From: Bdellovibrionales bacterium
GTDB lineage: Bacteria > Bdellovibrionota > Bdellovibrionia > Bdellovibrionales > UBA1609
Direction of reading: 5' to 3'
Assembly: GCA_965247685.1 (NCBI GenBank)
Contig: OZ252021.1
Coordinates: forward strand, 210,001 to 242,000
Length of the DNA stretch: 32,000 nt
Of this stretch, positions 985 through 28,792 are shown piece by piece. Position numbers and translations under genes: made by a program. The notes below the pieces were generated by a model. It was not told the origin of the DNA. It searched no databases and saw only the letters and a program-made list of their open reading frames with translations. Within the stretch, counting starts at the first letter, position 1. Every line of letters starts with the position of its first letter.

Positions 985-1025
985 TGTAATTATTACACAT
1001 ACGCTCTAATTGGATTGATTATATT
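985..1025 (+). promoter_or_regulatory. Palindrome TGTAA-N3-TTACA plus -10-like hexamer (candidate regulated promoter of the ANK gene at 1159)
   Basis: TGTAATTATTACA at 985-997, then 22 nt, then TATATT at 1020-1025. The same architecture recurs at the paralogs. Confidence 0.5.
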
Positions 1026-1087
1026 CATCTTTTACAGGTAAAGTAACTTCCTCAGTAGTAATCGTTTGGACCGTACAAAGGTCAGTT

Positions 1088-1132
1088 ATGAAAACTTATG
1101 TTTCTGATTATTATAGGGTTGTTTTTAAGTAG
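1088..1132 (+). promoter_or_regulatory. Conserved short upstream ORF in the ANK leader (MKTYVSDYYRVVFK*)
   Basis: ATG 1088 has AAAGG 6 nt upstream. The 14-codon ORF stops 26 nt before the main ATG. Homologous ORFs lie at 6578 and 7769. The same ATG serves as the gene start at 2573 and 5463. Confidence 0.35.
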
Positions 1133-1158
1133 AATATTACTATAAGGATGTAATCAAC

Positions 1159-2163
1159 ATGAAAAACTTAATAAATTTATTCGCTCATTTATTCACTCTT
1201 TTGAGTTTGTCAGTAATCGGGACAATAATATGTTTTACTGCTTATGCAGGAGCAGGAGCAGGAGTAGCAGCAGTAGCAGAATCAAAACAGCAACTTTCGT
1301 CACAATTAAACAACCGAGGAACTAAACTTCTCTTAGCATTGAAATTGGGAAATCTTGCAGCAGTTATGAAACTTTTTTCAGAAGAAAAAACATTAATAAA
1401 TCCGAATGTCAAAGGTGGTATATTGGGTCAAACAGCTTTACACCTAGCAGCCGAAAAAGGGATTTTAGGGATAATAATATCCCTAATCGAGAACTACAAC
1501 GCAAAACTAAATCTCAAAGATAACAAAGGTAAAACAGCTTTACTTATAGCAATTGAATCAGGTCATGCAGATGTGGCGCTACTTCTAATTACAAAGGGAG
1601 CAGATCTAAAGAGCTCAGATAATAATGGTCTAACACCTTTACTTGCAGCAATTAAAGTAGGTCATAAAGGTGTGGTAGAAGCTCTATTTAATAATGGAAT
1701 AAAAGATCTAGGCCAAAATAAAATGGGTTACACAGCTTTGCATTGGGCAACTCTCTACGGTCATTTAAAGATAATGAGGTTTTTAATCACCCTCGGCGAT
1801 GGCGAAGAAAAAAAACTAGATGCCCTAGATGCCAAAGATAAAGGAGGTCTAACACCTTTAATGGGAGCTGCCAAACAAGGTAATTCAGGTGCGGTACAAC
1901 TTCTACTTGAGTACGGAGCAGATTCGAATATCCCAGATAACGGGGGTCTAACAGCTTTACATTGGGCAGCTTTCTTTGGTCATGAACATGTGGTAGAAGC
2001 TCTAGCTGAAGCGGGAGCAGATCCAAATGCCCAAAATAATAGAAATGAAACACCTTTAGGTTTAGCAATTGAAGCACGTCATGATGGTGTGGCAAAAATT
2101 CTCCGCCAACACAGAGCAGTCTCAGGTGGAAACAGTTGTAGACAAATTATTCACTCCATTTGA
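1159..2163 (+). CDS. Secreted ankyrin-repeat protein (334 aa)
   Basis: ATG 1159 has AAGGA about 10 nt upstream. The N-terminus MKNLINLFAHLFTLLSLSVIGTIICFTAYA/GAGAG looks like a Sec signal peptide. There are about seven ANK units (GQTALHLAAEKG..., GKTALLIAIESGHADVALLLITKGADL...). It ends with the shared tail AVSGGNSCRQIIHSI*. Confidence 0.9.
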   Translation: MKNLINLFAHLFTLLSLSVIGTIICFTAYAGAGAGVAAVAESKQQLSSQLNNRGTKLLLALKLGNLAAVMKLFSEEKTLINPNVKGGILGQTALHLAAEKGILGIIISLIENYNAKLNLKDNKGKTALLIAIESGHADVALLLITKGADLKSSDNNGLTPLLAAIKVGHKGVVEALFNNGIKDLGQNKMGYTALHWATLYGHLKIMRFLITLGDGEEKKLDALDAKDKGGLTPLMGAAKQGNSGAVQLLLEYGADSNIPDNGGLTALHWAAFFGHEHVVEALAEAGADPNAQNNRNETPLGLAIEARHDGVAKILRQHRAVSGGNSCRQIIHSI

Positions 2164-2472
2164 AAATAGCTCACTCTCTATGCAGAAGTAATATCAACAC
2201 TTAAAAAAACTACAACCGCAAGTTTATCACAGGTGATGTTTCACCTGTAGCTGTTAGAGTGACAGCAGATAGACTTATATCAAAAGATTTTGTTGAATAT
2301 AATGTTAAATCCTTACCAAGCATAAAATACAAAAAATTATATAAGAAAAAAGTAAAAAAAGAAAAGCTTAAACCTCATCACCCCATGGAAAGAGAAAGAG
2401 ATCGTATCAAAATCGTTGTCCCATAACTGTGTAAAATCTCCACTGAATTATGCACAGTTTAATAATTCACTA
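2164..2472 (+). repeat. Type A inter-cassette spacer (about 300 nt, repeated)
   Basis: Near-identical to 5062-5361, and its 3' third matches 870-984. It begins with the common 3' module CTCACTCT-TATGCAGAAGTA...ACTACAACCGCAAGTTTATCACA. It contains a perfect 8-bp stem-loop ACAGGTGA-TGTT-TCACCTGT at 2229-2248. Confidence 0.85.
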
Positions 2473-2514
2473 TGTAATAATTACATATACTCTCTAATTG
2501 GATTGATTTATATT
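2473..2514 (+). promoter_or_regulatory. Palindrome plus -10-like hexamer upstream of the ANK gene at 2573
   Basis: TGTAATAATTACA at 2473-2485, then 23 nt, then TATATT at 2509-2514. Confidence 0.5.
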
Positions 2515-2572
2515 CATTAGGTAAACTAACTTGCTCAGTAGTAATCCGTTTTAACCCACACAAAGGTCAGTT

Positions 2573-3151
2573 ATGAAAACTTATGTTATCGGGACAATAA
2601 TATGTTTTACTGCTTATGCAGGAGCAGGAGCATCAGAATATCGATTTTTCTTAGCAGTTAAATCTGGAGATATTCAAAAAGTTAAAGAAATCTTGTCAAA
2701 AAAAATAATAGATATAAATACCCACAATAAAAAAGATGAAATAGCTTTAAACCTGGCAGCCGAACGAGGTAATGTAGGTATGTTACAAATTCTCCTCGAA
2801 CTCGGAGCAAAGCTAAATAAAACAGATAAAGAGGACCTTACAGCCTTACATTGGGCAGTTCTCGGAGGTAATGCTGATGTGATACGAACTCTCTTCGAAC
2901 ACGGAGCAGATTTGAATACCCCAGATGAAAGGGGCGAAACAGCCTTACATTGGGCAGTCGCTGAAGGTTATGAAGATCTGGTACGAATTCTCCTCGAACT
3001 CGGAGCAGATCTGAATAAAAAAGATAACTGGGATCAAACACCTTTAGGTTTAGCAATTAAAGCACGTCATGATGGTGTGGTAAAAATTCTCCGCCAACAC
3101 GGAGCAGTCTCAGGTGGAAACAGTTGTAGACAAATTATTCACTCCATTTGA
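2573..3151 (+). CDS. Ankyrin-repeat protein (192 aa) with a shortened signal peptide
   Basis: It has about four ANK units and the tail AVSGGNSCRQIIHSI*. The start ATG 2573 is the ATG that opens the short upstream ORF in the paralogs. Here it is fused in frame to the signal-peptide core (MKTYV-IGTIICFTAYAGAGA). Confidence 0.85.
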   Translation: MKTYVIGTIICFTAYAGAGASEYRFFLAVKSGDIQKVKEILSKKIIDINTHNKKDEIALNLAAERGNVGMLQILLELGAKLNKTDKEDLTALHWAVLGGNADVIRTLFEHGADLNTPDERGETALHWAVAEGYEDLVRILLELGADLNKKDNWDQTPLGLAIKARHDGVVKILRQHGAVSGGNSCRQIIHSI

Positions 3152-3317
3152 AAATAACTCACTCTCTATGCAGAAGTAAAATTAACACTTAAATAAAACT
3201 ACAACCGCAAGTTTATCACATTTGAGCAACTATTTAAAAAAGAACTTACAGTTGTTTTTAGTATAAATATTCAAGAACTTTTTAACTTTTGATTTTTAAC
3301 TTTTGATGATGAAACTA
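3152..3317 (+). repeat. Type B inter-cassette spacer (about 165 nt, repeated)
   Basis: It shares the first 70 nt or so with type A, then reads CACATTTGAGCAACTATTTAAAAAAGAACTTACAGTTGTTTTTAGTATAAATATTCAAGAACTTTTTAACTTTTGAT...GATGATGAAACTA up to the palindrome. The second copy is at 7506-7663, and the last 20 nt or so recur at 6470-6487. Confidence 0.85.
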
Positions 3318-3359
3318 TGTAAATATTACATACATACTCTATATCAGTTTGATTATATT
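3318..3359 (+). promoter_or_regulatory. Palindrome plus -10-like hexamer upstream of the ANK gene at 3469
   Basis: TGTAAATATTACA at 3318-3330, then 23 nt, then TATATT at 3354-3359. Confidence 0.5.
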
Positions 3360-3468
3360 CATTCAATAAGGTAACAGTAATTGTTTGGAGAGATAAGTTA
3401 TAAAAACTTATACTTCTGATTATTATGGGTTTGTTTTTAAATATGATCTCATTACAAGGGTGTATAAT

Positions 3469-5061
3469 ATGAAAAACTTAATAAAATTATTAGCTCATTT
3501 ATTCACTATCATTCTTTTGAGTTTGTCAGTAATCGCAACCGCTCATGCAGACAAAGTAGAATTAAATGAGAAATTTTTCTCAGCAGTTGAATCTGGAGAT
3601 ATTCAACAAGTTAACGAAATGTTGTCAAAAAAAACAGTAGATCTAAATACCAAAAATGAAAAGGGTCTAACACCTTTAATTATAGCTGCCGAACTAGGTC
3701 ATGAGCATGTGGTAGAATCCCTACTCAAACACGGAGCAGATCCAAATATCGAAAGTACAAAAACTATCAAAAATTCTACTTGGGATCAGCAAACTGCTTT
3801 ACATAAGGCAGCTCGCAAGGGCAATGTAAAGGTGATAAAAATTCTCTTTGACTACGGAGCAGATCTAGATAAAGGAGATTGGATGGGTATCACAGCTTTA
3901 CTTATGGCAGCCAAAAATGGTCATATAGATGCGGTACGAACTCTCCTCAAACTCGGAGCAGATCCAAATAAAAAAAGTCATATGGGAACCACTCCTTTAC
4001 GTCGGGCAGCTCTCAATGGTTATAGTAATGTGATAATAGCTTTAGTTACAAATGGAGCAAAAATAGATGCCAAAAGTAACGAAGGTAGCACAGCTTTACA
4101 CATGGCAACCGAACGAGGTCATGAGCATGTGGTACAAACTCTCCTCAAACTCGGAGCAAATCCAAATGAAGAAAATAATTTGAAAGAAACTAGTTTATAT
4201 TGGGCAGCTCGCAAGGGGCATACTGATGTGATAATAGCTTTAGTTAAAAATGGAGCAAATATAGATGCCAGAAGTAAAGGAGGTCTAACACCTTTACATA
4301 TAGCAGCTCACAATGGTAATGCTGATGCGATACGCACTCTCATCGAACTCGGAGCAGATTTGAATACCCCAGATGAAAGGGGTGAAACAGCTTTACATAC
4401 GGCAACTCGCAAGGGCAATGATACTATAGTAAGAATGCTAGTTCAAAACAAAGTAGATATAGATGCCAAAAATAAAGGAGGTAAAACAGCTTTAGATTTG
4501 GCAATTGAACAAGGAGATTATACAGGTGTTGTGACAGTTGTGGAAAATATTCTCCATGTCGCTCATGCAGACAAAGTAGAATTAAATGAGAAACTTTTCT
4601 CAGCAGTTAAATCTGGGGATATTCAAAAAGTTAACAAAATTTTGTCAAAAAAAATAATAGATCTAGATATCCAAAATAGAAAGGGTCGAACAGTTTTAAT
4701 TATAGCTGCCGAACTAGGTCATGAGCATGTGGTAGAATCCTTACTCAAACACGGAGCAGATCCAAATCAAGAAAATAATTTGAGAGAAACAGCTTTACAT
4801 ATAGCAGCTGACAATGGTTATTTTGGCATAGTACAACTTCTCCTCAAATCTGGAGCAAATCCAGATATCCAAAATACCAATAATTACAAAGCTTTAGATC
4901 TAGCAATGAGAACACCAACTTTAGATTCAGCAACTAAAAAACCTTACTTAGATATAATAGCTCTACTCAGCGAAAAAACAAAGATAGGTTTCCTAAAAAG
5001 AGCGCGTGTAAAAAGGATATTAAAAAAGTGTAGTAAAACTATCGGTTCCATAGGAAAATAA
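3469..5061 (+). CDS. Secreted ankyrin-repeat protein (530 aa), in-frame fusion of two cassettes
   Basis: ATG 3469 (MKNLIKLLAHLFTIILLSLSVIATAHA/DKVELNEK) has AAGGG upstream; the track start at 3460 is a GTG. It has about 12 ANK units. The mature N-terminal sequence AHADKVELNEK...GHEHVVESLLKHGADPN recurs internally exactly 1020 nt later (3541-3745 versus 4561-4765). The tail is a variant: KKCSKTIGSIGK*. Confidence 0.85.
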   Translation: MKNLIKLLAHLFTIILLSLSVIATAHADKVELNEKFFSAVESGDIQQVNEMLSKKTVDLNTKNEKGLTPLIIAAELGHEHVVESLLKHGADPNIESTKTIKNSTWDQQTALHKAARKGNVKVIKILFDYGADLDKGDWMGITALLMAAKNGHIDAVRTLLKLGADPNKKSHMGTTPLRRAALNGYSNVIIALVTNGAKIDAKSNEGSTALHMATERGHEHVVQTLLKLGANPNEENNLKETSLYWAARKGHTDVIIALVKNGANIDARSKGGLTPLHIAAHNGNADAIRTLIELGADLNTPDERGETALHTATRKGNDTIVRMLVQNKVDIDAKNKGGKTALDLAIEQGDYTGVVTVVENILHVAHADKVELNEKLFSAVKSGDIQKVNKILSKKIIDLDIQNRKGRTVLIIAAELGHEHVVESLLKHGADPNQENNLRETALHIAADNGYFGIVQLLLKSGANPDIQNTNNYKALDLAMRTPTLDSATKKPYLDIIALLSEKTKIGFLKRARVKRILKKCSKTIGSIGK

Positions 5062-5361
5062 CTCACTCTCTATGCAGAAGTAAAATTAACACTTAAATAA
5101 AACTACAACCGCAAGTTTATCACAGGTGATGTTTCACCTGTAGCTGTTAGAGTGATAGCAGATAGACTTATATCAAAAGATTTTGTTGAATATAATGTTA
5201 AATCCTTACCAAGCATAAAATACAAAAAGTTATATAAGAAAAGAGTGAAAAAAAGCTTAAATCTCATCACCCCATGGAAAGAGAAAGAGATCGTATCAAA
5301 ATCGTTGCCCGATAACTGTGTAAAATCTCCACTGAATTAAGCACAGTGTAATAGTTCACTA
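5062..5361 (+). repeat. Type A inter-cassette spacer, second copy
   Basis: Aligns with 2164-2472, with a few substitutions and an indel in the A-run near 5245. The stem-loop ACAGGTGA-TGTT-TCACCTGT lies at 5122-5141. Confidence 0.85.
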
Positions 5362-5400
5362 TGAATTATTACACACATACTCTAATTAGTTGATCATATT
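5362..5400 (+). promoter_or_regulatory. Degenerate palindrome plus -10-like hexamer upstream of the ANK gene at 5463
   Basis: TGAATTATTACA at 5362-5373 (left arm lacks one T), then 21 nt, then CATATT at 5395-5400. Confidence 0.35.
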
Positions 5401-5462
5401 CCTTTTTTATAGGTAAACTAACTTGCTCAGTAGTAATCGTTTGGACTGCACAAAGGTCAGTT

Positions 5463-6074
5463 ATGAAAACTTATGTTATCGGAACAATAATATTTTTTAC
5501 TGCTTATGCAGGAGCAGGAACTTTGGAAGATCAATTTCTCTCAGCAGTTGGATCTGGAGATATTCAAAAAGTTAACAAAATTTTGTCAAAAAAAATAATA
5601 GATCTAGATATCCAAAATGAAAGGGGTCTAACAGCTTTACACCTGGCAGCCAAAAACGGTGACTTAAATATGGTAGAATCCCTACTCAAACACGGAGCAG
5701 ATCCGGATATCCAAGAAGAAGACAAAAAAACAGCTTTACTTATAGCAACTGAAAACGACCATTTTGATATAGCACAACTCCTCCTCAGACACGGAGCAGA
5801 TCCAAATCTCCAAAATGAACATGGTATAACAGCCTTACATTCAGTAGCTCTCAAAGGTAATGGAAGTATGGTACAAATTCTCCTCGAATACAGAGCAGAT
5901 CCAAATAAAAAAGATAAATGGGGTAGAACGGCTTTAAGTTTAGCAATTAAAGCAGGTCACTTAGATGTAATAGCTCTACTCCATGAAGAAACAGCACATA
6001 GTATCCAAGATAAAGTGAACTCCATGCTTCTAAAGTTGGAATCAAAGTGTAAAGATCTCGTCAGCTCCATTTGA
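5463..6074 (+). CDS. Ankyrin-repeat protein (203 aa) with a shortened signal peptide
   Basis: The N-terminus MKTYVIGTIIFFTAYAGAG shows the same upstream-ORF-ATG fusion as the gene at 2573. It has about four ANK units. The C-terminus ...ESKCKDLVSSI* keeps the Cys-x5-SI end. Confidence 0.85.
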   Translation: MKTYVIGTIIFFTAYAGAGTLEDQFLSAVGSGDIQKVNKILSKKIIDLDIQNERGLTALHLAAKNGDLNMVESLLKHGADPDIQEEDKKTALLIATENDHFDIAQLLLRHGADPNLQNEHGITALHSVALKGNGSMVQILLEYRADPNKKDKWGRTALSLAIKAGHLDVIALLHEETAHSIQDKVNSMLLKLESKCKDLVSSI

Positions 6075-6124
6075 AAATAGCTCACTCTTCTATGCAGAAG
6101 TAAAATCAACACTTAGAAAATAAA

Positions 6125-6139
6125 TGGCATTCCCTACGG
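6125..6139 (-). pseudogene. Fragment of the tRNA-Glu 3' end (duplicated junction)
   Basis: TGGCATTCCCTACGG at 6125-6139 is identical to 8922-8936, the 3' acceptor/CCA end of the intact tRNA-Glu. The identity extends about 60 nt leftwards into the ANK 3' flank (6066-6139 versus 8863-8936, one mismatch). After position 6139 only weak similarity to the T-arm remains. Confidence 0.75.
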
Positions 6140-6378
6140 ACTACTAACCGGAGTATCCTGTTAAAATTTTGTATTTTGATGTAGTTCTAATTGTACTATA
6201 TACTCCTATTTACATAAGTATGATTATTAAGCAATAATTATAGCATCATCCGAGTAGTAATATCTTTTATTTCTTTTGGATATTTTTCACACTTTTGTCC
6301 TTTTCCTTTAGGTAGCAAATGCCATTTGAACGTTCAAAAAGAATCAATTCAATTTTTAGAACCACTATTTGTTAAATC

Positions 6379-6492
6379 ATGAACATGTTGAGCAAAGAGC
6401 AAGTTTTACAAATGAACTATCCAGACTTCATTGGATTTATGGGGATGGAAAACACCTCCTTGTTGGAGGACTTTGATGATGAAACTATGTAA
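6379..6492 (+). pseudogene. Possible N-terminal remnant of a SAM-dependent methyltransferase gene
   Basis: The 37-codon ORF MNMLSKEQVLQMNYPDFIGFMGMENTSLLEDFDDETM* resembles, from memory, the N-termini of class I methyltransferases (..LSKEE.L.MNY.DF......N). From about 6470 the sequence becomes the type B spacer, so the ORF is cut off there. Confidence 0.25.
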
Positions 6493-6528
6493 GTATTACA
6501 TACATATTCTAATTAGTTTGACTATATT
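6488..6528 (+). promoter_or_regulatory. Palindrome plus -10-like hexamer upstream of the ANK gene at 6648
   Basis: TGTAAGTATTACA at 6488-6500, then 22 nt, then TATATT at 6523-6528. Confidence 0.5.
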
Positions 6529-6577
6529 CATTAGGTAAAGTAATTTGCTCATCAGTAATTATTTGGAAAGATAAGTT

Positions 6578-6646
6578 ATGAAAACTTATGCTTCTGATTA
6601 TTATGGGTTTGTTTTTAAGTATAATCTCATTACAAGGGGTGTATAA
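6578..6646 (+). promoter_or_regulatory. Conserved short upstream ORF in the ANK leader (MKTYASDYYGFVFKYNLITRGV*)
   Basis: ATG 6578. The stop TAA at 6644-6646 lies 1 nt before the main ATG 6648. Confidence 0.3.
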
Positions 6647-6647
6647 T

Positions 6648-7505
6648 ATGAAAAACTTAATAAAATTATTCGCTCATTCATTCACTATCACTCTTTTGAG
6701 TTTGTCAGTACTCGCAACCGCTCATGCAGAAAAAGTAGAATTAAATGAGAAATCTTTATCACCAGAAGAAAGGGAATTTTTCTCAGCAGTTAAATCTGGG
6801 GATAATAAAAGGGTTGAAGAAATTTTGTCAAAAGAAGATATAGATCTAAATATCCAAAATGAAAGGGGTCTAACAGCTTTAATGATAGCTGCCGAACTAG
6901 GTCATGAGCGTGTGGTAGAATCCCTACTCAAACACGGAGCAGATCCAAATATCGAAAGTAAAAATATCAAACATTCTACTTGGGATCAGAGCACTGCTTT
7001 ACATACGGCAGTTCGCAAGGGCAATGTAAAGTTGATAAAAATTCTCTATGACTACAAAGCAGATCTAGATAAAGGGGATTGGATGGATTACACAGCTTTA
7101 AACCAGGCAGCTGCTGAAAATAATGAAAATGTGGTACAAACTCTCCTCAAACTCGGAGCAGATCCAAATAAAGAAAATGAATTGAAAGAAACTACTTTAC
7201 ATGAGGCAGCTCGCATGGGTCATACTAATATGATAATAGCTTTAGTTACAAATGGAGCAAATATAGATGCCAAAGGTAGAGAAGGTCAAACAGCTTTACA
7301 TTGGGCAGCCTGGAACGGTCATGCAGGTCTGGTACAGGCCCTGCTCAAACTCGGAGCAGATTCAAATATCCAAGATGATAAATATAGAATAGCTTTAGAT
7401 TTTGCAATTACACGAGGTTATAAAGGTGTGGAAGATATTCTCCGTAAACACAAAGCAGTCTCAGGTGCAAACAACAGTTGTAAACAAACTATCAGCTCCA
7501 TTTGA
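6648..7505 (+). CDS. Secreted ankyrin-repeat protein (285 aa)
   Basis: ATG 6648 (MKNLIKLFAHSFTITLLSLSVLATAHA/EKVELNEK) has AAGGGG 8 nt upstream and matches the paralog starts. The track start at 6588 would add 20 non-conserved residues. It has about six ANK units and the tail AVSGANNSCKQTISSI*. Confidence 0.8.
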   Translation: MKNLIKLFAHSFTITLLSLSVLATAHAEKVELNEKSLSPEEREFFSAVKSGDNKRVEEILSKEDIDLNIQNERGLTALMIAAELGHERVVESLLKHGADPNIESKNIKHSTWDQSTALHTAVRKGNVKLIKILYDYKADLDKGDWMDYTALNQAAAENNENVVQTLLKLGADPNKENELKETTLHEAARMGHTNMIIALVTNGANIDAKGREGQTALHWAAWNGHAGLVQALLKLGADSNIQDDKYRIALDFAITRGYKGVEDILRKHKAVSGANNSCKQTISSI

Positions 7506-7663
7506 AAATAGCTCACTCTTCTATGCAGAAGTAGTCTCAACACTTAAAAAAACTACAACCGCAAGTTTATCACATTTGAGTAACTATTTAAAAAAGAACT
7601 TACAGTTGTTTTTAGTATAAATATTCAAGAACTTTTTAACTTTTGATTTTGATGATGAAACTA
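7506..7663 (+). repeat. Type B inter-cassette spacer, second copy
   Basis: Aligns with 3152-3317 almost base for base. Confidence 0.85.
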
Positions 7664-7719
7664 TGTAAGTATTACATACATATTCTAATCAGCTTGATTC
7701 TAATCAGCTTGATTATATT
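7664..7719 (+). promoter_or_regulatory. Palindrome plus -10-like hexamers upstream of the ANK gene at 7840
   Basis: TGTAAGTATTACA at 7664-7676, then 22 nt, then TCTAAT at 7699-7704. A 15-nt tandem duplication (TCTAATCAGCTTGAT x2, 7683-7712) moves the ancestral TATATT to 7714-7719. Confidence 0.45.
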
Positions 7720-7768
7720 CATTCAATAAGGTAACTTTCTCAGCAGTAATTATTTGGAAAGATAAGTT

Positions 7769-7813
7769 ATGAAGACTTGTACTTCTGATTATTATGGGTT
7801 TGTTTTTAAGTAG
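7769..7813 (+). promoter_or_regulatory. Conserved short upstream ORF in the ANK leader (MKTCTSDYYGFVFK*)
   Basis: ATG 7769, stop TAG at 7811-7813, 26 nt before the main ATG 7840. Confidence 0.35.
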
Positions 7814-7839
7814 AATATTACTATAAGGATGTAATCAAC

Positions 7840-8871
7840 ATGAAAAACTTAATAAAATTATTCGCTCATTTATTCACTATCATTCTTTTGAGTTTGTCAG
7901 TAATCGCAACCGCTCATGCAGACAAAGTAGAATTAAATGAGAAACTTTTCTCAGCAGTTAAATCTGGGGATAATAAAAGGGTTGAAGAAATTTTGTTAAA
8001 AAAAATAATAGATCTAGATATCCAAAATGAAAGGGGTCGAACAGCTTTAATGATAGCTGCCGAACTAGGTCATGAACGTGTGGTAGAATCCCTACTCAAA
8101 CACGGAGCAGATCCAAATATCGAAAGTAAAAATATCAAACATTCTACTTTGGATCAGAGCACTGCTTTACATAAGGCAGTTCGCAAGGGCAATGCAAAGT
8201 TGATACAAATTCTCTCTGACTACAAAGCAGATCTAGATAAAGGAGATTGGTTGGGTCTAACACCTTTACATTGGGCAATCGCTGAAGGTTATGAAGATCT
8301 GGTACAAATTCTCCTCAAACTCGGAGCAAATCCAAATATCCAAAATAGAAAGGGTCGAACACCTTTACATTGGGCAGCTCGCATGGGTCATACTAATATG
8401 ATAATAGCTTTAGTTACAAATGGAGCAAATATAGATGCCAAAGGTAGAGAAGGTCTAACACCTTTACATTGGGCAGCCTTTAACGGTTATAATGGTGCGG
8501 TACAGACCCTCCTCGAACACAAAGCAGATCCAAATATCCCAGATAAAGACGGTCGAACACCTTTAAATTTGGCAATTGCACGAGGTCATACTAATGTGAT
8601 AATAGCTTTAGTTACAAATGGAGCAAATATAGATGCCAAAGGTAGAGAAGGTCTAACACTTTTAAATTGGGCAGCCTCTAACGGTCATGCAGGTCTGGTA
8701 CAGACCCTGCTCAAACTCGGAGCAGATCCATATATCCCAGATGATAAAAATAAAACAGCTTTAGATTTGGCAATTGCACAAGGTCATAAAGGTGTGGAGA
8801 ATATTCTCCGTAAACACAGAGCAGTCTCAGGTGCAAACAACAGTTGTAAACAAACTATCAGCTCCATTTGA
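7840..8871 (+). CDS. Secreted ankyrin-repeat protein (343 aa)
   Basis: ATG 7840 has AAGGA upstream. The signal peptide is MKNLIKLFAHLFTIILLSLSVIATAHA/DKVELNEK. It has about eight ANK units (GRTPLHWAARMGHTNMIIALVTNGANIDAK...) and the tail AVSGANNSCKQTISSI*. Confidence 0.9.
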   Translation: MKNLIKLFAHLFTIILLSLSVIATAHADKVELNEKLFSAVKSGDNKRVEEILLKKIIDLDIQNERGRTALMIAAELGHERVVESLLKHGADPNIESKNIKHSTLDQSTALHKAVRKGNAKLIQILSDYKADLDKGDWLGLTPLHWAIAEGYEDLVQILLKLGANPNIQNRKGRTPLHWAARMGHTNMIIALVTNGANIDAKGREGLTPLHWAAFNGYNGAVQTLLEHKADPNIPDKDGRTPLNLAIARGHTNVIIALVTNGANIDAKGREGLTLLNWAASNGHAGLVQTLLKLGADPYIPDDKNKTALDLAIAQGHKGVENILRKHRAVSGANNSCKQTISSI

Positions 8872-8921
8872 AAATAGCTCACTCTTCTATGCAGAAGTAA
8901 TATCAACACTTAGAAAATAAA

Positions 8922-8996
8922 TGGCATTCCCTACGGGACTCGAACCCGTGTCTTCACCGTGAAAGGGTGATGTCCTAACCGCTAGACGAAGGGAAC
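8922..8996 (-). tRNA. tRNA-Glu (anticodon UUC), CCA encoded
   Basis: The reverse complement is GTTCCCTTCGTCTAGCGGTTAGGACATCACCCTTTCACGGTGAAGACACGGGTTCGAGTCCCGTAGGGAATGCCA. Acceptor stem GTTCCCT/AGGGAAT, anticodon stem TCACC/GGTGA with loop CTTTCAC, T-loop GGTTCGAGTCC. Confidence 0.92.
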
Positions 8997-8999
8997 ACA

Positions 9000-9076: not shown

Positions 9077-9214
9077 AGATCTATTCACCAAAAATATAAA
9101 AAAATTACTCCCCACAATCTCAAAAAAATAATACGAGCACAATCAAAAAAGTACGAAATATAGAATTTTCAGCACCATAAGAACATAAACCTTAATGAGC
9201 TTCAAGTCAGTATC

Positions 9215-15657: not shown

Positions 15658-15714
15658 TCACTCACAATTAAATTATTACAATAGGATAATAACTGAAAGA
15701 GCAAAAGAATACTA

Positions 15715-22881: not shown

Positions 22882-22885
22882 AATA

Positions 22886-23851
22886 ATGCAAGGCTATAAA
22901 GTATCTTTTAAAGAAGCTTGCAAACTACTACAACAAGGTGATGTGGTTTCTATTCCTACAGAAACAGTATATGGATTGGCTGGAGATATTAGTAATGCCG
23001 AAACAATAAAAAAAATTTTTCATATAAAACAAAGACCCTTTTTTGATCCTTTGATCGTCCATTTTTCTCACTGGAGTCAATTAAAAAAAATAGCTCAATG
23101 TTCTTCTCCTGTCACAGAACGTTTATCTCAATCTTTTCACCCGGGACCTTTGACGTTGGTGCTCCCAAAAAAAGAAGAAATCTCTGATCTAGTTACATCC
23201 CATCTTCCTACGGTAGCAGTACGAATACCCTCTCATTCTTTGACATTGAAGCTTTTACGAGAGACTCAACTACTTTTAGCGGCGCCTAGTGCTAATTTGT
23301 TTTCAAAAATAAGTCCCACTCGTGCCGAACATGTGACACTCTCTTTATCCGTTCCTGTATTAGATGGAGGTCCTTGCGATGTAGGAATTGAATCAACTAT
23401 TTTGGAAGTGCAGGAAGATCAAAAAACACTTGTTGTATTAAGACCCGGAGTGATTGGTTTGAAAGAACTCCATAAATTTTTAAAATCTAATAACTTCACA
23501 AATTGGAGTGTTCATTTATCTGATTCTAATCTATCTACTCATCCTGGACAGTTTCACGCTCACTACACTCCGGATGCACCATTGGTATTAGTTCAAGTTC
23601 AAAAAAGGATTACTTCTGATGCAATCATCAAAAAAATAAAAGAATTCTATCCCCTTCTTGAACCAGAAGAATATAAAATCTCAGATGACCCTTATCTCTT
23701 AGCGAGAAATCTTTATCACAATTTAAGAAATCTTTCTCAAAATTCTGTAGGTTACGTTGTGAGAACTTATCCATTCAAATATAAAAATGATGCTTGGAGA
23801 GCTGTCTGGAACCGTCTTGAAAAAGCTTCTTCCAAAACCATTAATCTTTAA
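22886..23851 (+). CDS. tsaC: L-threonylcarbamoyladenylate synthase (Sua5/YwlC-type TsaC, YrdC plus Sua5 domains)
   Basis: 321 aa. It has PTETVYGLAGD, RPFFDPLIVH, AVRIPSH and LAAPSANLFSKISPT, and the length fits the two-domain Sua5 form. Its last 11 nt overlap the convergent gene at 23841-25310. Confidence 0.85.
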   Translation: MQGYKVSFKEACKLLQQGDVVSIPTETVYGLAGDISNAETIKKIFHIKQRPFFDPLIVHFSHWSQLKKIAQCSSPVTERLSQSFHPGPLTLVLPKKEEISDLVTSHLPTVAVRIPSHSLTLKLLRETQLLLAAPSANLFSKISPTRAEHVTLSLSVPVLDGGPCDVGIESTILEVQEDQKTLVVLRPGVIGLKELHKFLKSNNFTNWSVHLSDSNLSTHPGQFHAHYTPDAPLVLVQVQKRITSDAIIKKIKEFYPLLEPEEYKISDDPYLLARNLYHNLRNLSQNSVGYVVRTYPFKYKNDAWRAVWNRLEKASSKTINL

Positions 23852-25310
23852 AACTATTTTGGAGAGAATCTAAAGTATCACGGACATCCCTTTGATATTG
23901 CTTTCTTACTTTATCCATTTCATATGTAGATTCAAAACCGATGTAAACTACATCTCCTGCGATAACAGCATAAGCAGAAACACCAGCTAAAGAGACAGCA
24001 CCAATACCTATACCGCGTGCGATACGACCTAGTCTGTGGAAGAAAGATTTTCGACCTTCTAACACTTGATTGGTGACATTTTTCAAGTCTTCTCCTGCTT
24101 TCCTTATCTTCATCTCTTCTTCACTAACTTTAACATCTTGAGCTGCACTTGTTTTTGGATCAGATGTTTGACTCCTGTCGACATTGTTATCAGCTGCACT
24201 TGTTTTTGGATCAGATGTTTGACTCCTGTCGACATTGTTATCAGCTATGGCACGTTTGCTTTGTTCATACTCTTCATTTATGGCAAGTTTGCTTTGTTCA
24301 TACTCTTCATACGCTTCATTTACGGTAAGTTTTCTTTGTTCATTCGCTACAGCTATGGCAAATTTTCTTTTTCCATCCTCTTCAGCTATGGCACGAACTT
24401 TTTGTTTATTCGCTTCACCTAGGGCACGTTTTCTTTGTTCATTCGCTTCATCTATGGCACGTTCTCTTTCAACCCCCGTCTCCTTCTCCGCTTCAACTAG
24501 GGCACGAGCTTTTTGTTTATCCGCTTCAACTATGGCACGTTTTCTTTGTTCATCCGCTTCAACTAGGGCACGTTTTCTTTGTTCATTCGCTTCAGCTATG
24601 GCACGTTTGTTTTGTCCATTCGCTTTAACTACGACACGAGCTTTTTGTTTATCCGCTTCAACTAGGGCACGAACTTTTTGTTTATTCGCTTCAACTGGGG
24701 CATCTTCTTTTTTCGATTTTTCTGTTGCCACTAGGTCATCAATTTTTCTTTTTTGTTTATTCATTTGTTCAAATAGGACTGTGCTCTTTTCTGGGTCAGC
24801 CTTTATAGCTTGGTCAAGTATTCCTTGTTGAATCTTCACCGCTCTCCTTAGTTTTCTAGCACCAGGCTTTTTATTAGGAGTTAAGAGTCGGACAGTACCT
24901 TTTCCAAATGCTGAAGCTTTATGTACCATATATGCAGTACCAAGAGCTGCTGGCACAGCGATATATATACCACGCTCACTGTTTACACCAATCGCTTCAT
25001 TCATCTGTTGGAATTCATCTATAAAGACAGAAACTCCCTGTTTAAAAATCAACTCTATCCTATCTTCACCGTCTAATTGTTCAAAAGCAAGAGCTATGTT
25101 TTCCCATTTAGAAGTAATCGATTCTAATTGATCGAGATCTATATCTCCACCATTTGTTCCAAGATTATTCCTCACATCTTGTGCAAGCAACATAGCTAAT
25201 TGATCGTCTAGTGACTCATTTGGTTCTTCATTATTTTCTACAGCATTTGCTGACAGACTCAAAAGAATGACAGTGAATAAACTGACGAATAATTTTATTA
25301 AGTTTTTCAT
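23841..25310 (-). CDS. Signal-peptide protein with hendecad (11-aa) Lys/Glu/Ala-rich repeat core and C-terminal glycine-rich hydrophobic segment (489 aa)
   Basis: The N-terminus MKNLIKLFVSLFTVILLSLSANA/VENNEE uses the same signal-peptide module as the ANK genes. The core is about 13 units of the type VEADKQKARAL / AEANEQRKRAL, followed by 2 x DNNVDRSQTSDPKTSAA. The C-terminus has RGIGIGAVSLAGVSAYAVIAGDVVYIGF plus a charged tail. Confidence 0.8.
   Translation of the reverse strand: MKNLIKLFVSLFTVILLSLSANAVENNEEPNESLDDQLAMLLAQDVRNNLGTNGGDIDLDQLESITSKWENIALAFEQLDGEDRIELIFKQGVSVFIDEFQQMNEAIGVNSERGIYIAVPAALGTAYMVHKASAFGKGTVRLLTPNKKPGARKLRRAVKIQQGILDQAIKADPEKSTVLFEQMNKQKRKIDDLVATEKSKKEDAPVEANKQKVRALVEADKQKARVVVKANGQNKRAIAEANEQRKRALVEADEQRKRAIVEADKQKARALVEAEKETGVERERAIDEANEQRKRALGEANKQKVRAIAEEDGKRKFAIAVANEQRKLTVNEAYEEYEQSKLAINEEYEQSKRAIADNNVDRSQTSDPKTSAADNNVDRSQTSDPKTSAAQDVKVSEEEMKIRKAGEDLKNVTNQVLEGRKSFFHRLGRIARGIGIGAVSLAGVSAYAVIAGDVVYIGFESTYEMDKVRKQYQRDVRDTLDSLQNSFKD
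24141..24242 (-). repeat. 51-nt tandem repeat x2 (encodes DNNVDRSQTSDPKTSAA twice)
   Basis: AGCTGCACTTGTTTTTGGATCAGATGTTTGACTCCTGTCGACATTGTTATC is repeated with a period of 51 nt. An identical pair lies at 26236-26337. Confidence 0.9.
24243..24700 (-). repeat. Degenerate 33-nt coding repeats (hendecads)
   Basis: The pattern ...GCTTCAACTAGGGCACG(A/T)...TTT(C/G)TTTGTT(C/T)AT(C/T)C... recurs every 33 nt, with two irregular units. Confidence 0.8.
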
Positions 25311-25365
25311 ATTAATTACACTCCCTATAATAATTTAAAAACAACCTCATAATAATCAGATTTCA

Positions 25366-25407
25366 AATTTAGCACAATAAAAATTTCTAAACCATGTAAT
25401 TATTACA
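25366..25407 (-). promoter_or_regulatory. Palindrome plus -10-like hexamer upstream of the hendecad-repeat gene at 23841-25310
   Basis: On the coding (minus) strand: TGTAATAATTACA (25395-25407), then 23 nt, then TAAATT (25366-25371) preceded by TGC (extended -10-like). The ATG is about 55 nt further on. Confidence 0.5.
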
Positions 25408-25415
25408 CTTTAATA

Positions 25416-25667
25416 TTACTGTTGTTGTCTTTCTATTTCTGTTAATTCCTCTTTAAACCATTCTTGAATGATTCGATTCTGATCTTGATTCTCTTGATAT
25501 TGATACCATAGCATAATAGCCACTCCTCCAATTCCAACTCCTACTCCACTTAGAACAAATTTTTTCGCATAAGAAGGTGGAATGTGTAATTTATTTAATG
25601 AAGCAAAATATGCTTGAGACAGTGGAGATTTGATGAACTTAAAAGATTTTAAAATAAGGGAAAAAAG
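25416..25667 (-). pseudogene. Truncated copy (C-terminal 83 codons) of the 273-aa membrane-protein gene
   Basis: Aligns with 27882-28133. It translates to FSLILKSFKFIKSPLSQAYFASLNKLHIPPSYAKKFVLSGVGVGIGGVAIMLWYQYQENQDQNRIIQEWFKEELTEIERQQQ*. It has no start codon and no upstream part, and it ends at a junction with tsaC-derived sequence. Confidence 0.8.
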
Positions 25668-25946
25668 AAGAAATCTCTGATCTAGTTACATCCCATCTTC
25701 CTACGGTAGCAGTACGAATACCTTCTCATTCTTTGACATTGAAGCTTTTACAACAGACTCAACTACTTTTAGCAGCGCCTAGTACTAACTTGTTTTCAAA
25801 AATAAGTCCCACTCGTGTTAAGAAATCTTTCTCAAAATTCTGTAGGTTACGTTGTGAGAACTTATCCATTCAAATATAAAAATGATGCTTGGAGAGCTGT
25901 CTGGAACCGTCTTGAAAAAGCTTCTTCCAAAACCATTAATCTTTAA
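25668..25946 (+). pseudogene. tsaC fragment copy with an internal deletion
   Basis: 25668-25817 aligns with tsaC 23174-23324, and 25818-25946 aligns with tsaC 23723-23851. About 398 nt of tsaC are missing between the two pieces, and there is no 5' part. Confidence 0.8.
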
Positions 25947-27693
25947 AACTATTTTGGAGAGAATCTAAAGTATCACGGACATCCCTTTGATATTGCTTTC
26001 TTACTTTATCCATTTCATATGTAGATTCAAAACCGATGTAAACTACATCTCCTGCGATAACAGCATAAGCAGAAACACCAGCTAAAGAGACAGCACCAAT
26101 ACCTACACCGCGTGCGATACGACCTAGTCTGTGGAAGAAAGATTTTCGACCTTCTAACACTTGATTGGTGACTTTTTTCAAGTCTTCTCCTGCTTTCCTT
26201 ATCTTCATCTCTTCTTCACTAACTTTAACATCTTGAGCTGCACTTGTTTTTGGATCAGATGTTTGACTCCTGTCGACATTGTTATCAGCTGCACTTGTTT
26301 TTGGATCAGATGTTTGACTCCTGTCGACATTGTTATCAGCTATGGCAAGTTTTCTTTGTTCATACTCTTCAGCTATGGCAAGTTTTCTTTGTCCATGCTC
26401 TTCATCTATGGCAAGTTTTCTTTGTCCATGCTCTTCATCTGTGGCACTTTTTCTTTGTTCATACTCTTCATCTATGGCACTTTTTCTTTTTTCATACTCT
26501 TCATCTATGGCACTTTTTCTTTGTTTATATTCTTCATCTATGGCAAGTTTTCTTTGTGGATCCGCTTCAGCTATCGCTACAGCTACGGCACGATCTTTTT
26601 GTGCAAACTCTTCAACCATGGCAAGTCTTCTTTGTTCATGCGCTTCATCTAGGTCAAATTTTCTTTTTGCATCCGCTTCATCTAGGGCAGACTGTCTTTT
26701 TGCATCCACTTCATCTAGGGCAGACTGTCTTTTTGCATCCGCTTCATCTAGGGCAGACTGTCTTTTTGCATCCACTTCATCTAGGGCAGACTGTCTTTTT
26801 GCATCCACTTCATCTAGGGCAGATTTTCTTTTTGCATCTTTCGCATCTGCTTTTTCTTGTCTTTTCGCTGCTGCTTCTTCTTTTTTCGCATTTTTCGCAT
26901 CTGCTTTTTCTTGTCTTTTCGCTGCTGCTTCTTCTTTTTTCGCATTTTTCGCATCTGCTTTTTCTTGTCTTTTCGCTGCTACTTCTTCTTTTTTCGCATT
27001 TTTCGCATCTGCTTTTTCTTGTCTTTTCGCTGCTACTTCTTCTTTTTTCGCATTTTTCGCATCTGCTTTTTCTTTTTTCGCATCTGCTTCTTTTTTCGCT
27101 TCTGCTTTTACCACTAGGTCATCAATTTTTCTTTTTTGTTTATTCATTTGTTCAAATAGGACTGTGCTCTTTTCTGGGTCAGCCTTCATAGCTTGGTCAA
27201 GTATTCCTTGTTGAATCTTCACCGCTCTCCTTAGTTTTCTAAAAGAAGGTTTTTTATTAGGAGTTAAGAGTCGGACAGTACCTTTTCCAAATGCTGAAGC
27301 TTTATGTACCATATATGCAGTACTAATAGCTGCTGGCACAGCGATATATATACCACGCTCACTGTTTACACCAATCGCTTCATTCATCTGTTGGAATTCA
27401 TCTATAAAGACAGAAACTCCCTGTTTAAAAATCAACTCTATCCTATCTTCACCGTCTAATTGTTCAAAAGCAAGAGCTATGTTTTCCCATTTAGAAACTA
27501 TCGATTCTAATTGATCGAGATCTATATCTCCACCATTTGTTCCAAGATTATTCCTCACATCTTGTGCAAGCAACATAGCTAATTGATCGTCTAGTGACTC
27601 ATTCGGTTCTTCATTATTTTCTACGGCATTTGCTGACAAACTCAAAAGAATGATAGTGAATAAACTGACGAATAATTTTATTAAGTTTTTCAT
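25936..27693 (-). CDS. Signal-peptide protein with hendecad and 18-aa Lys/Glu/Ala-rich repeats and C-terminal glycine-rich hydrophobic segment (585 aa), paralog of 23841-25310
   Basis: The first 195 aa or so and the last 140 aa or so are almost identical to the paralog. The core differs: 4 x EKADAKNAKKEE(V/A)AAKRQ, 6 x DAKRQSALDE(V/A), 7 x DEEY(K/E)QRKSAI. Confidence 0.8.
   Translation of the reverse strand: MKNLIKLFVSLFTIILLSLSANAVENNEEPNESLDDQLAMLLAQDVRNNLGTNGGDIDLDQLESIVSKWENIALAFEQLDGEDRIELIFKQGVSVFIDEFQQMNEAIGVNSERGIYIAVPAAISTAYMVHKASAFGKGTVRLLTPNKKPSFRKLRRAVKIQQGILDQAMKADPEKSTVLFEQMNKQKRKIDDLVVKAEAKKEADAKKEKADAKNAKKEEVAAKRQEKADAKNAKKEEVAAKRQEKADAKNAKKEEAAAKRQEKADAKNAKKEEAAAKRQEKADAKDAKRKSALDEVDAKRQSALDEVDAKRQSALDEADAKRQSALDEVDAKRQSALDEADAKRKFDLDEAHEQRRLAMVEEFAQKDRAVAVAIAEADPQRKLAIDEEYKQRKSAIDEEYEKRKSAIDEEYEQRKSATDEEHGQRKLAIDEEHGQRKLAIAEEYEQRKLAIADNNVDRSQTSDPKTSAADNNVDRSQTSDPKTSAAQDVKVSEEEMKIRKAGEDLKKVTNQVLEGRKSFFHRLGRIARGVGIGAVSLAGVSAYAVIAGDVVYIGFESTYEMDKVRKQYQRDVRDTLDSLQNSFKD
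26236..26337 (-). repeat. 51-nt tandem repeat x2
   Basis: The same unit as at 24141-24242. Confidence 0.9.
26338..26568 (-). repeat. 33-nt coding repeats, about 7 units (DEEYxQRKxAI)
   Basis: CAGCTATGGCAAGTTTTCTTTGTTCATACTCTT-like units with a period of 33 nt. Confidence 0.85.
26640..26837 (-). repeat. 33-nt coding repeats, about 6 units (DAKRQSALDEV)
   Basis: TGCATCC(G/A)CTTCATCTAGGGCAGACTGTCTTTT with a period of 33 nt (for example 26668 and 26701). Confidence 0.9.
26838..27075 (-). repeat. 54-nt coding repeats, about 4 units (EKADAKNAKKEEVAAKRQ)
   Basis: TTTTTCGCATCTGCTTTTTCTTGTCTTTTCGCTGCTGCTTCTTCTTTTTTCGCA with a period of 54 nt (for example 26891 and 26945). The + strand here is strongly pyrimidine-rich. 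Confidence 0.9.
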
Positions 27694-27748
27694 ATTAATT
27701 ACACTCCCTATAATAATTTAAAAACAACCCCATAATAATCAGATTTCA

Positions 27749-27790
27749 AATTTAGCACAATAAAAATTTCTAAACCATGTAATTATTACA
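27749..27790 (-). promoter_or_regulatory. Palindrome plus -10-like hexamer upstream of the hendecad-repeat gene at 25936-27693
   Basis: On the minus strand: TGTAATAATTACA (27778-27790), then 23 nt, then TAAATT (27749-27754). Confidence 0.5.
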
Positions 27791-27860
27791 TCATAACATT
27801 AATGCTACAGTCTTGCTACTTCTTCTAATTCCTCTTTAAGCCATTAAAATTTCTAAACCA

Positions 27861-27873
27861 TGTAATTATTACA
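27861..27873 (-). promoter_or_regulatory. Orphan copy of the palindrome
   Basis: TGTAATTATTACA. On the minus strand it is followed by only 15 nt of the leader (TGGTTTAGAAATTTT), and then by a short remnant resembling the 3' end of the 273-aa gene (27812-27845). Confidence 0.4.
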
Positions 27874-27881
27874 TTTTAATA

Positions 27882-28691
27882 TTACTGTTGTTGTCTTTCT
27901 ATTTTTGTTAATTCCTCTTTAAACCATTCTTGAATGATTTGATTCTGATCTTGATTCTCTTGATATTGATACCATAGCATAATAGCCACTCCTCCAATTC
28001 CAACTCCTGCCCCACTTAGAAAAAACTTTTTCGCATAAGAAGGTGGAATGTGTAATTTATTTAATGAAGCAAAATATGCTCGAGACAGAGGAGATTTGAC
28101 GAACCTAAAAGATTTTAAAATAAGGGAAAAAAGTTTCTCCATCGCCACCAATTCTAAAGCATAAAATCCAGTGCTTCCTAAAATATCAACAATTCGAATA
28201 GTTTTGGCAAAACCACCTATCTCATCTTGATCCATAGTCCCTAAACAATCTATTGCCCCTTGCTTAAATCCATCTGAACGGATGAGAAAAATTGTATATA
28301 AAGAATGGAACCAGCTTTCGAGCTCAAAAAATCCAGTATTCGTTTTTTCGAGATAGTCTGCTTTTTTCCCTCCAATAGCTGAAAAAGGCTGGGCTGCACC
28401 TTCATATAAAATATGCATCCAAGCTAATAGAGAAGAATCTTCTGAATCATATTGATCCTGTTCATTCAATTCACCTGATCCAGCAACCGTACGATAAACG
28501 GAACATAGACTTATGGTCATAGAATAAGCATCTTTTTCCACACTCATTCTATAATCGTATAGATCTTGTAAGACCTCATCTCCAAAATTTTTACGAGTTA
28601 CCTTTTGAATACTTTGCAATTCAGTATTTGATTGTGCTTGCACAGAAAATACAATGAATAAGGAAAAAATAAAATATAACAAACGAAACAT
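27882..28691 (-). CDS. Hypothetical signal-peptide protein with C-terminal glycine-rich TM segment (269 aa from ATG 28691; 273 aa from GTG 28703)
   Basis: The signal peptide is MFRLLYFIFSLFIVFSVQA/QSN, with AGGGAG upstream. The C-terminus has FFLSGAGVGIGGVAIMLWY followed by the tail QYQENQDQNQIIQEWFKEELTKIERQQQ. I recognise no family. Confidence 0.7.
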   Translation of the reverse strand: MFRLLYFIFSLFIVFSVQAQSNTELQSIQKVTRKNFGDEVLQDLYDYRMSVEKDAYSMTISLCSVYRTVAGSGELNEQDQYDSEDSSLLAWMHILYEGAAQPFSAIGGKKADYLEKTNTGFFELESWFHSLYTIFLIRSDGFKQGAIDCLGTMDQDEIGGFAKTIRIVDILGSTGFYALELVAMEKLFSLILKSFRFVKSPLSRAYFASLNKLHIPPSYAKKFFLSGAGVGIGGVAIMLWYQYQENQDQNQIIQEWFKEELTKIERQQQ

Positions 28692-28733
28692 CTTTAAAAA
28701 CACTCCCTGTACAAAAAAATGCAGTTTTAACGG

Positions 28734-28792
28734 ATTATACAGATTTTATTTAGAAAGACGTGTAAAAAAAGATATGTGTGTAAATTTTACAC
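28734..28792 (-). promoter_or_regulatory. Palindrome GTGTAAA-T-TTTACAC plus extended -10 (TGTATAAT) upstream of the 273-aa gene
   Basis: The palindrome spans 28778-28792 (core TGTAA-ATT-TTACA at 28779-28791). On the minus strand TGTATAAT lies at 28734-28741, 39 nt beyond the core. This spacing differs from the 21-23 nt seen at the other copies. Confidence 0.4.

Follow-up and report, generated by a model that had tools for sequence, protein, structure and literature searches.

We examined a 32-kb stretch of a Bdellovibrionales genome (contig OZ252021.1, positions 210,001 to 242,000; hereafter the window), which carries two blocks of accessory genes for exported proteins, and found that a short palindrome with TGTAA and TTACA arms recurs upstream of these genes. 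We consider it probable (roughly 0.6) that this palindrome is the site of one homodimeric regulator defining a regulon of accessory exported proteins. In the mechanism we favour, RTGTAAT-W-ATTACAY would be bound by a single sequence-specific homodimeric transcription factor, conserved in a clade of small-genome bacteria (~1.1-1.4 Mb) that are probably host-associated. One site per accessory gene or operon, directly upstream of its promoter, would join the ANK-repeat, hendecad/HEN-like and 273-aa families in one regulon, and a symmetric site could serve divergent gene pairs from one copy. The core promoter is predicted to be a weak one of the sigma-70 type, with TTGAyw ~17 nucleotides (nt) past the site and TAnnAT ~17 nt further. 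The dyad would then lie near -58, where an upstream (class I-like) activator is more usual than a repressor, and the placement upstream of weak promoters favours activation rather than repression.

The motif TGTAANNNTTACA was found in nine exact copies, against 0.02 expected from dinucleotide-preserving shuffles of the window. All of them (9/9) are intergenic, and a first-order Markov model built from the intergenic DNA alone (4.6 kb, 29% GC) gives the same expectation of 0.02, so that within the window the motif does not occur at the chance frequency of AT-rich intergenic DNA, the outcome that an earlier reading made from the letters alone (the sequence-only reading) had named as a check. That reading had counted ten copies; nine are exact, and the tenth (5361-5373, given there as 5362-5373) is degenerate, with one left-arm base missing. 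Its description of constant arms around a variable 3-nt spacer agrees with our alignment of the copies. TGTAA forms the sole recurring 5-3-5 palindrome in the window. Allowing up to two mismatches to TGTAATNATTACA returned the copies in the table and one extra site, at 15668, while sites with three mismatches occurred at the chance rate (36 seen, 32 expected); there is no tail of weaker sites, and the palindrome family is discrete. The consensus of 14 non-redundant copies widened the symmetry to a 15-bp, 7-1-7 arrangement, RTGTAAT-W-ATTACAY, in which both arms and the R/Y flanks are symmetrically conserved and the G and C positions are invariant inside AT-rich DNA. When promoters were aligned on its centre, the palindrome formed an island of identity between otherwise dissimilar sequences. 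The exact motif strings and half-sites gave no relevant match in the literature. The shared leader pattern returned only 8 matches from a genome collection, at chance level and in unrelated metagenome-assembled genomes, and the ANK promoter core a single chance match in metagenomes, in eukaryote-like DNA.

We compared the window with contigs from four related genomes (L010, L011, L012 and L015; L013 and L014 are variants of L012), 106.8 kb in five genomes when the 32-kb window and ~75 kb from the relatives are taken together. Homologues of the 273-aa protein were found on four other contigs at 37-55% identity. The orthologues are 36-62% identical to each other; the housekeeping proteins match their counterparts in the window at 62-85% identity. 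L010, L011 and L012 share the gene order SLT, pyrC, 188-aa gene, 273-aa orthologue, variable accessory block, tsaC, VTT, icd; L015 is a 12.4-kb contig without the SLT, pyrC, tsaC, VTT and icd housekeeping genes. An exact palindrome lies 62-67 nt upstream of the start codon of the 273-aa orthologue in L010, L012 and L015, and a copy with one mismatch precedes that of L011. Arm matches are thus perfect (10/10) in four of the five genomes and 9/10 in the other, with diverged flanks, and the palindrome is retained even where the 273-aa proteins are only 36-46% identical. Islands of conservation in the alignment of these promoters fall on the palindrome, a T-run, a TAtAATC box, the ribosome-binding site and the start codon. 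L010, L011 and L012 each carry a second exact copy, before a non-orthologous signal-peptide gene: that of L012 is upstream of the first gene in a seven-gene tandem operon, L011 has a copy before a HEN-like 398-aa gene and another between a divergent 494-aa gene and the 273-aa orthologue, and in L010 one copy lies between a divergent gene pair.

All 106.8 kb were then scanned with a weight matrix (RTGTAAWWWTTACAY). Every strong match (17/17) was intergenic, centred 69-174 nt upstream of an accessory signal-peptide gene, and none (0/17) fell in a housekeeping promoter of the five genomes. For eight genes in four genomes the palindrome lies 84-91 nt from the start codon. In the window the same scan found no copy upstream of purA, gor, dppA, ung, dapF, icd, tsaC or pyrC, as the sequence-only reading had noted; its proposal of one symmetric (dimeric) regulator of exported accessory proteins gains support from the conservation in four genomes and the absence from housekeeping promoters. 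The findings from the related genomes make the strongest case available for a functional cis element that is read symmetrically.

The same comparison bears on whether the palindrome has a regulatory role at all. It could be a hitch-hiker in a duplicated promoter cassette, or a recombination or mobile-element site: copies do lie at the 5' edge of duplicated units, the blocks are rich in tandem and segmental duplications and in chimeric 5' ends, and the arms begin with TG and end with CA, as many transposon ends do. However, the palindrome has been kept in orthologous promoters while the neutral intergenic DNA around it diverged, it stands out as the identity island described above, its distance to the start codon is constrained, and no transposase, integrase or target-site duplication was seen nearby. 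We consider this explanation very improbable. As an identity for the element, a transposon end was rejected.

That the palindrome works in the RNA, folding into a hairpin that would end transcription of the preceding gene or control the leader, appears extremely improbable. The palindrome lies 3-10 nt past the stop codon of the 188-aa gene in three genomes (3 nt for the copy at 28779-28791), and a T-run follows it in the promoters of the 273-aa orthologues. The stem would consist of just 5-6 AU-rich pairs closed by a 3-nt loop, though, the T-run begins 4-10 nt past the stem instead of abutting it, the terminator scan did not report the element and no Rfam family matches there, and many copies have no co-oriented gene upstream, such as those between the divergent pairs of L010 and L011. 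An intrinsic terminator was rejected on the same features of stem, U-tract and scan.

The copies are not, as the sequence-only reading had it, set in otherwise unrelated contexts; paralogy of the ANK genes, a shared cassette and the duplications of block 2 refute this. In the alignment, paralogy among the upstream regions of the six ANK genes sets in ~5 nt before the palindrome and extends to the start codon. Two of these genes, ANK2573 and ANK5463 (numbers are start positions), begin at ATGAAAACTTATG. In the other four the ATGAAAACTTATG start is only a leader remnant (1088-1100, 3400-3412, 6578-6590 and 7769-7781) and a second module follows; the remnant reads ATA in 3460 and keeps ATG in the other three, giving a short upstream open reading frame (ORF). 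This second module (module S in the table) contains CTGATTATTATnnGnTTGTTTTTAA, a ribosome-binding site and ATGAAAAACTTAAT, which encodes the signal peptide MKNLIKLF. It is present at high identity in four ANK genes and in both hendecad genes, whose mature proteins are unrelated, so that the ANK context is related to the hendecad one. Module S has the appearance of a portable -10/leader/signal-peptide unit that moves between genes by recombination. The N-terminus of ANK1159 (1159-1260) is a chimeric double signal peptide, MKNLINLFAHLFTLLSLS followed by VIGTIICFTAYAGAG.

Accessory block 2 proved to be a segmental duplication, 23723-25667 matching 25818-28133 at 88-96% identity, and the duplicated segments include 3' fragments of tsaC (25818-25946) and of the 273-aa gene (25377-25667). 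The copies at 25395 and 27861 are products of this recent duplication and are 95% identical. An older 86-bp tandem duplication (27760-27845 = 27843-27928) is the origin of the orphan palindrome and of the copy at 27778. Taken together, paralogy and duplication leave approximately three independent contexts in the window (ANK, hendecad and 273-aa), not ten.

The chimeric ANK1159 and the presence of the module in both ANK and hendecad families are the basis for a more specific proposal, in which the palindrome would be the operator of a lineage-specific secretome master regulator in a clade not described before. Operator, promoter, leader and Sec signal peptide would travel together as one portable 5' cassette that recombination grafts onto unrelated genes. 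We put this forward as a tentative possibility.

Two further details of the ANK promoters were also recorded. A perfect 15-nt tandem duplication at 7684-7713 (TCTAATCAGCTTGAT x2) separates the palindrome from the core promoter of ANK7840; it shifts this promoter by 1.4 helical turns, and the gene may have been uncoupled from the regulator. In A-type ANK promoters a half-site-like TGTGTAAA (weight-matrix score 9.9) was seen at 937-949, with equivalents at ANK2573 and ANK5463. It precedes the main palindrome by ~48 nt and may have arisen by chance, or may serve as an auxiliary half-site.

The position of the promoter relative to the palindrome can be read in two ways. The sequence-only reading had placed a -10-like hexamer 21-23 nt past eight copies; we confirmed seven, and eight only if TCTAAT of ANK7840 is counted. 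For the 273-aa gene there is no such box at that distance, and TATAAT is found at 39 nt. From the proximal boxes a dyad near -41/-42 had been deduced, in place of a -35 element, so that the bound protein would be a class II activator or would block RNA polymerase as an operator-bound repressor does. We regard this geometry as unlikely. TATATT, CATATT or TAAATT do occur at 21-23 nt in seven or eight window copies, weaker boxes at 21-22 nt were seen in L010_315, L012_461 and the L010 273-aa orthologue, the HEN and L010_315 promoters have a TG one base before the hexamer as in an extended -10, and no canonical -35 at 16-18 nt spacing pairs with the proximal hexamers. Comparison between genomes, however, fails to support the class II position for the HEN-type, 315/461 and 273-aa promoters. 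In the HEN-type promoter the proximal TAAATT has become TGAATT in L011, losing the essential A at position 2, while TTG and the distal gATTAyTATGg are kept, TATTAT appearing as TACTAT. The 315/461 pair retains TTGATA together with GATAAT or TAGTAT at the distal position, while its proximal hexamer decays to TAAGAA. The 273-aa gene and its orthologues have the distal box only, as a near-perfect TATAAT, TAGAAT or TACAAT at 39, 32, 30, 39 and 30 nt. In the ANK promoters TTGATT abuts TATATT and could equally be read as a -35, so these sequences fit both geometries.

Over all 17 sites TTGAyw was found at an offset of 15-18 nt in 10 sites and 4 contexts. Conservation of this element and of the distal box would place the dyad near -58 (-49 to -51 in three orthologues), upstream of the -35-like element, as in the upstream-activator arrangement that we favour. 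A consensus scan called a canonical sigma-70 promoter at no copy. Two further identities were considered for the element at this position: a sigma-factor -35 was rejected, since neither arm is better conserved than the other and divergent genes share a single copy, and a MerR-type operator within an over-long -35/-10 spacer was rejected by eye, there being no -35 upstream of the palindrome.

We then compared the palindrome with sites of known regulators; on this comparison the motif is a new operator of a familiar kind, not a new type of mechanism. Fur-family boxes are 15-bp AT-rich 7-1-7 inverted repeats too, bound by a dimer, and the Gram-positive Zur box consensus TAAATCGTAATNATTACGATTTA has exactly the same 11 bp at its core, GTAAT-N-ATTAC (PMC2706843, PMC545781). 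We also compared the Bacillus subtilis PerR box TTATAATNATTATAA and the Fur core TGATAATNATTATCA in the Yersinia pestis 9-1-9 repeat. A metal- or redox-responsive repressor of this family (Zur-, PerR-, Fur- or Mur-like) could silence the secretome until the host depletes its cofactor. Genes of the family are frequently kept in reduced genomes. Control of virulence networks by Fur-family regulators has been reported in intracellular bacteria (Brucella Fur4/Mur, PMC12748984). The outer positions nevertheless differ. Specificity of Fur-family boxes is set by positions 5 and 6 from the centre, and the T6 G5 found here, invariant in exact copies, is a Zur/PerR hybrid that departs from Zur (C6 G5), Fur (G6 A5) and PerR (T6 A5). 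The targets are secreted ANK and coiled-coil proteins, with no metal-homeostasis gene among them (0); the 32 kb of source and ~75 kb of relatives contain no metal-related gene and, among their listed genes, no Fur-family Pfam match. Typical Zur boxes sit at or near the -35 and overlap the core promoter, whereas the site here would probably lie upstream of the -35 under the distal geometry and would overlap a -35 only under the proximal one. A helix-turn-helix (HTH) protein of the XRE type, moreover, is encoded beside the same palindrome in a phage contig (below). We consider a Fur-family repressor improbable; the match to the Zur box is a resemblance, not membership.

The functionally closest analogue is the PrfA box. 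The PrfA regulon consists largely of secreted and surface proteins. In Listeria monocytogenes the box, tTAACanntGTtAa, is centred at -41.5 and marks the promoters of the virulence regulon (PMC3443378). It is a short palindrome read by a symmetric dimer, as is proposed for the present element, and its functional logic is the one put forward in the sequence-only reading. The two sites differ in sequence and in layout: the PrfA box spans 14 bp around a 2-bp centre, the present one 13-15 bp around a single base. For the HEN-type and 273-aa promoters a position of -41.5 is unsupported. In Legionella and Coxiella, effector regulons are defined by PmrA and CpxR sites in front of Dot/Icm effector genes, and such sites can be used to predict new effectors. 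They resemble the palindrome as short cis motifs that keep a set position before many unrelated effector genes, but they are tandem direct repeats, bound by response regulators, and precede type IV substrates without a Sec signal, in contrast to the inverted repeat and Sec-type signal peptides found here.

Several other families share half-site letters only. GlnR/TnrA (MerR-type) sites are 17-bp TGTNA-N7-TNACA, the TyrR box is TGTAAA-N6-TTTACA and the LacI/CcpA cre is TGTAAnCGnTTACA, with an N4 spacing; with N3 the half-site centres here are 8 bp apart, which is incompatible with the geometry of all three. The LacI/GalR-type cre is also even in length and has a CG step at its centre; the core here has 13 bp, an odd number, with A or T in the middle and no CG. 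CRP/FNR sites have 5-bp half-sites and a 4-6 bp spacer, giving a 14-16 bp core in a 22-bp site, and the spacer here is 3 bp in every copy; a class II dyad at -41.5 is possible for the ANK promoters and contradicted by conservation for the HEN-type, 315/461-type and 273-aa promoters. The LacI, TyrR, TnrA and CRP families were accordingly rejected on spacing.

Two GC-rich phage contigs contain TGTAAT[G/C]ATTACA, an identical 6-1-6 palindrome: L118 in eight copies (741, 3813, 5722, 7463, 8095, 9280, 10889 and 13390) and L074 in three. One L118 copy lies between divergent small ORFs and adjoins a gene for an XRE/Cro-type HTH protein (7818-8054). Such a neighbour makes other HTH families equally plausible readers of the palindrome and shows nothing more. 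Many of the phage copies are inside genes, the contigs are unrelated to the window in sequence and there is no link to exported proteins; no annotated phage relative of L118 was found. Separately, a giant-virus-like contig, L060, has three intergenic copies of TGTAATWATTACA.

A number of observations weigh against a single regulator of exported-protein genes. The copy counts overstate independence, many copies being related by duplication. The 106.8 kb surveyed represent parts of five genomes, not whole genomes. The relatives also contain accessory signal-peptide genes with no good copy upstream, for example those of 229 aa in L010 and 275 aa in L011. A regulator gene was found neither in the window nor in the related loci (~107 kb); the sequence-only reading had likewise seen none in the window, where we found small uncharacterised proteins without Pfam or NCBIfam matches. 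When -10-like hexamers were pooled over the 17 sites, two equal peaks appeared, at 21-23 nt and 38-41 nt, each with 10 sites in 5 contexts, and the proximal -10 is numerically as well supported as the distal one. For a strict class I activator, both the spread of site-to-box distances among the 273-aa promoters, which keeps no helical phase, and the 15-nt duplication displacing the ANK7840 promoter are awkward.

Coordinates of the palindrome copies, candidate promoter elements, shared cassette and accessory blocks in the window
Feature	Position	Strand	Context	Remarks
Palindrome TGTAATTATTACA	985-997		upstream of ANK gene 1159-2163	exact; weight-matrix score 23.6
Palindrome TGTAATAATTACA	2473-2485		87 nt 5' of ATG, ANK gene 2573-3151	exact
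Palindrome TGTAAATATTACA	3318-3330		upstream of ANK gene, likely start 3469, end 5061	exact
Degenerate copy ATGAATTATTACA	5361-5373		upstream of ANK gene 5463-6074	left arm short by one base
Palindrome TGTAAGTATTACA	6488-6500		upstream of ANK gene, likely start 6648, end 7505	exact
Palindrome TGTAAGTATTACA	7664-7676		upstream of ANK gene 7840-8871	exact
Palindrome	25395-25407		84 nt 5' of ATG, hendecad gene 23841-25310 (-)	exact
Palindrome	27778-27790		84 nt 5' of ATG, hendecad gene 25936-27693 (-)	exact
'Orphan' palindrome	27861-27873		upstream member of 86-bp tandem duplication	exact
Palindrome GTGTAAATTTTACAC	28779-28791		87 nt 5' of likely ATG (28691), 273-aa gene	exact; conserved upstream of orthologues
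TATAAT, probable -10	28734-28739	-	273-aa gene	39 nt downstream of palindrome
TATTAT, distal -10 candidate	25349-25354	-	hendecad gene 23841-25310	offset 40; starts shared cassette
TATTAT, distal -10 candidate	27732-27737	-	hendecad gene 25936-27693	offset 40
TTGTGC, -35-like	25372-25377	-		17 nt past palindrome; twin 27755-27760; TTG conserved vs L011
TTGATT, -35-like	1015-1020	+		17 nt past palindrome
TTGATT equivalents	2503-2508, 3349-3354, 5390-5395, 6518-6523, 7694-7699	+
TATATT, proximal -10 candidate	1020-1025	+		from the sequence-only reading
TATATT equivalents	2509-2514, 3354-3359, 5395-5400, 6523-6528, 7714-7719	+
TAAATT, proximal -10 candidate	25366-25371, 27749-27754	-	hendecad genes
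Module S cassette	1104-1172, 3416-3482, 6594-6661, 7785-7853	+		~70 nt
Module S cassette	25297-25359, 27680-27742	-		~70 nt
Accessory block 1	1159-8871	+	six tandem ANK-repeat genes	N-terminal signal peptides
Accessory block 2	23841-28691	-	two hendecad-repeat genes and 273-aa gene

The hendecad proteins (23841-25310 and 25936-27693) and the 273-aa protein (27882-28691) all have a signal peptide at the N-terminus and, in the C-terminal region, a hydrophobic Gly-rich segment, e.g. GIGIGAVSLAGVSAYAVIAG, an arrangement which suggests that they are membrane-anchored, exported proteins. No homologue of the hendecad N-terminal domain was detectable, and the long antisense ORFs running through the hendecad repeats are probably artefacts of the repetition. 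For the 273-aa protein the AlphaFold model had a predicted local distance difference test (pLDDT) score of 46.5, too low for a fold search. Searches with the ANK proteins yielded nothing but generic ANK matches and a single paralogue encoded in the same genome. A common C-terminal tail, R(K/Q)H(R/K/G)AVSG(A/G)N(N)SC(K/R)Q(T/I)I(S/H)SI-stop, was found in the ANK genes ending at 2163, 3151, 7505 and 8871, and more weakly at 6074; it could be a sorting, lipidation or secretion signal. Two tRNA genes (8925-9076, minus strand), Rfam's only matches in the window, border the ANK array, an arrangement typical of the edge of a genomic island. Within this array a terminator-like hairpin was noted at 6455-6469, 19 nt upstream of the palindrome at 6488-6500.

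Other observations concern the related contigs and a neighbouring gene. The seven tandem signal-peptide paralogues of L012 (10897-16977; 461, 125, 301, 297, 301, 282 and 228 aa) have one palindrome, before the first, and are separated by gaps of mostly ~10 nt, with 30 nt after the first gene; their N-terminal domain motif, ED-x-x-EL-x-FK, was also found in the hendecad proteins of the window. L015 encodes (6041-10204, minus strand) a 1387-aa protein with a match to the RNA polymerase alpha C-terminal domain (PF03118) and faint helix-hairpin-helix matches, an architecture unusual for bacteria. Beside dapF a conserved 114-aa ORF (window 18358-18702, L011 18926-19270) has no Pfam or NCBIfam match; by eye its product resembles a short ribosome hibernation factor (HPF/RaiA-like). 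Among the housekeeping genes of the window, the best PDB matches were PurA of Legionella and E. coli and Ung of E. coli and Coxiella, and icd matched the ICDH_alpha equivalog, a mainly alphaproteobacterial model.

If a single homodimeric regulator does read these palindromes, the 15-bp motif would predict co-regulated secreted proteins, candidate host-interaction factors, in an uncultured clade, much as PmrA and PrfA boxes have already been used as regulon predictors in Legionella, Coxiella and Listeria, and it would offer a concrete bait for pull-down of the regulator. The mosaic 5' ends show shuffling of promoter, leader and signal-peptide modules among effector families; were cassette grafting to hold as well, a newly acquired protein would be brought under the regulator and into the export pathway at once.

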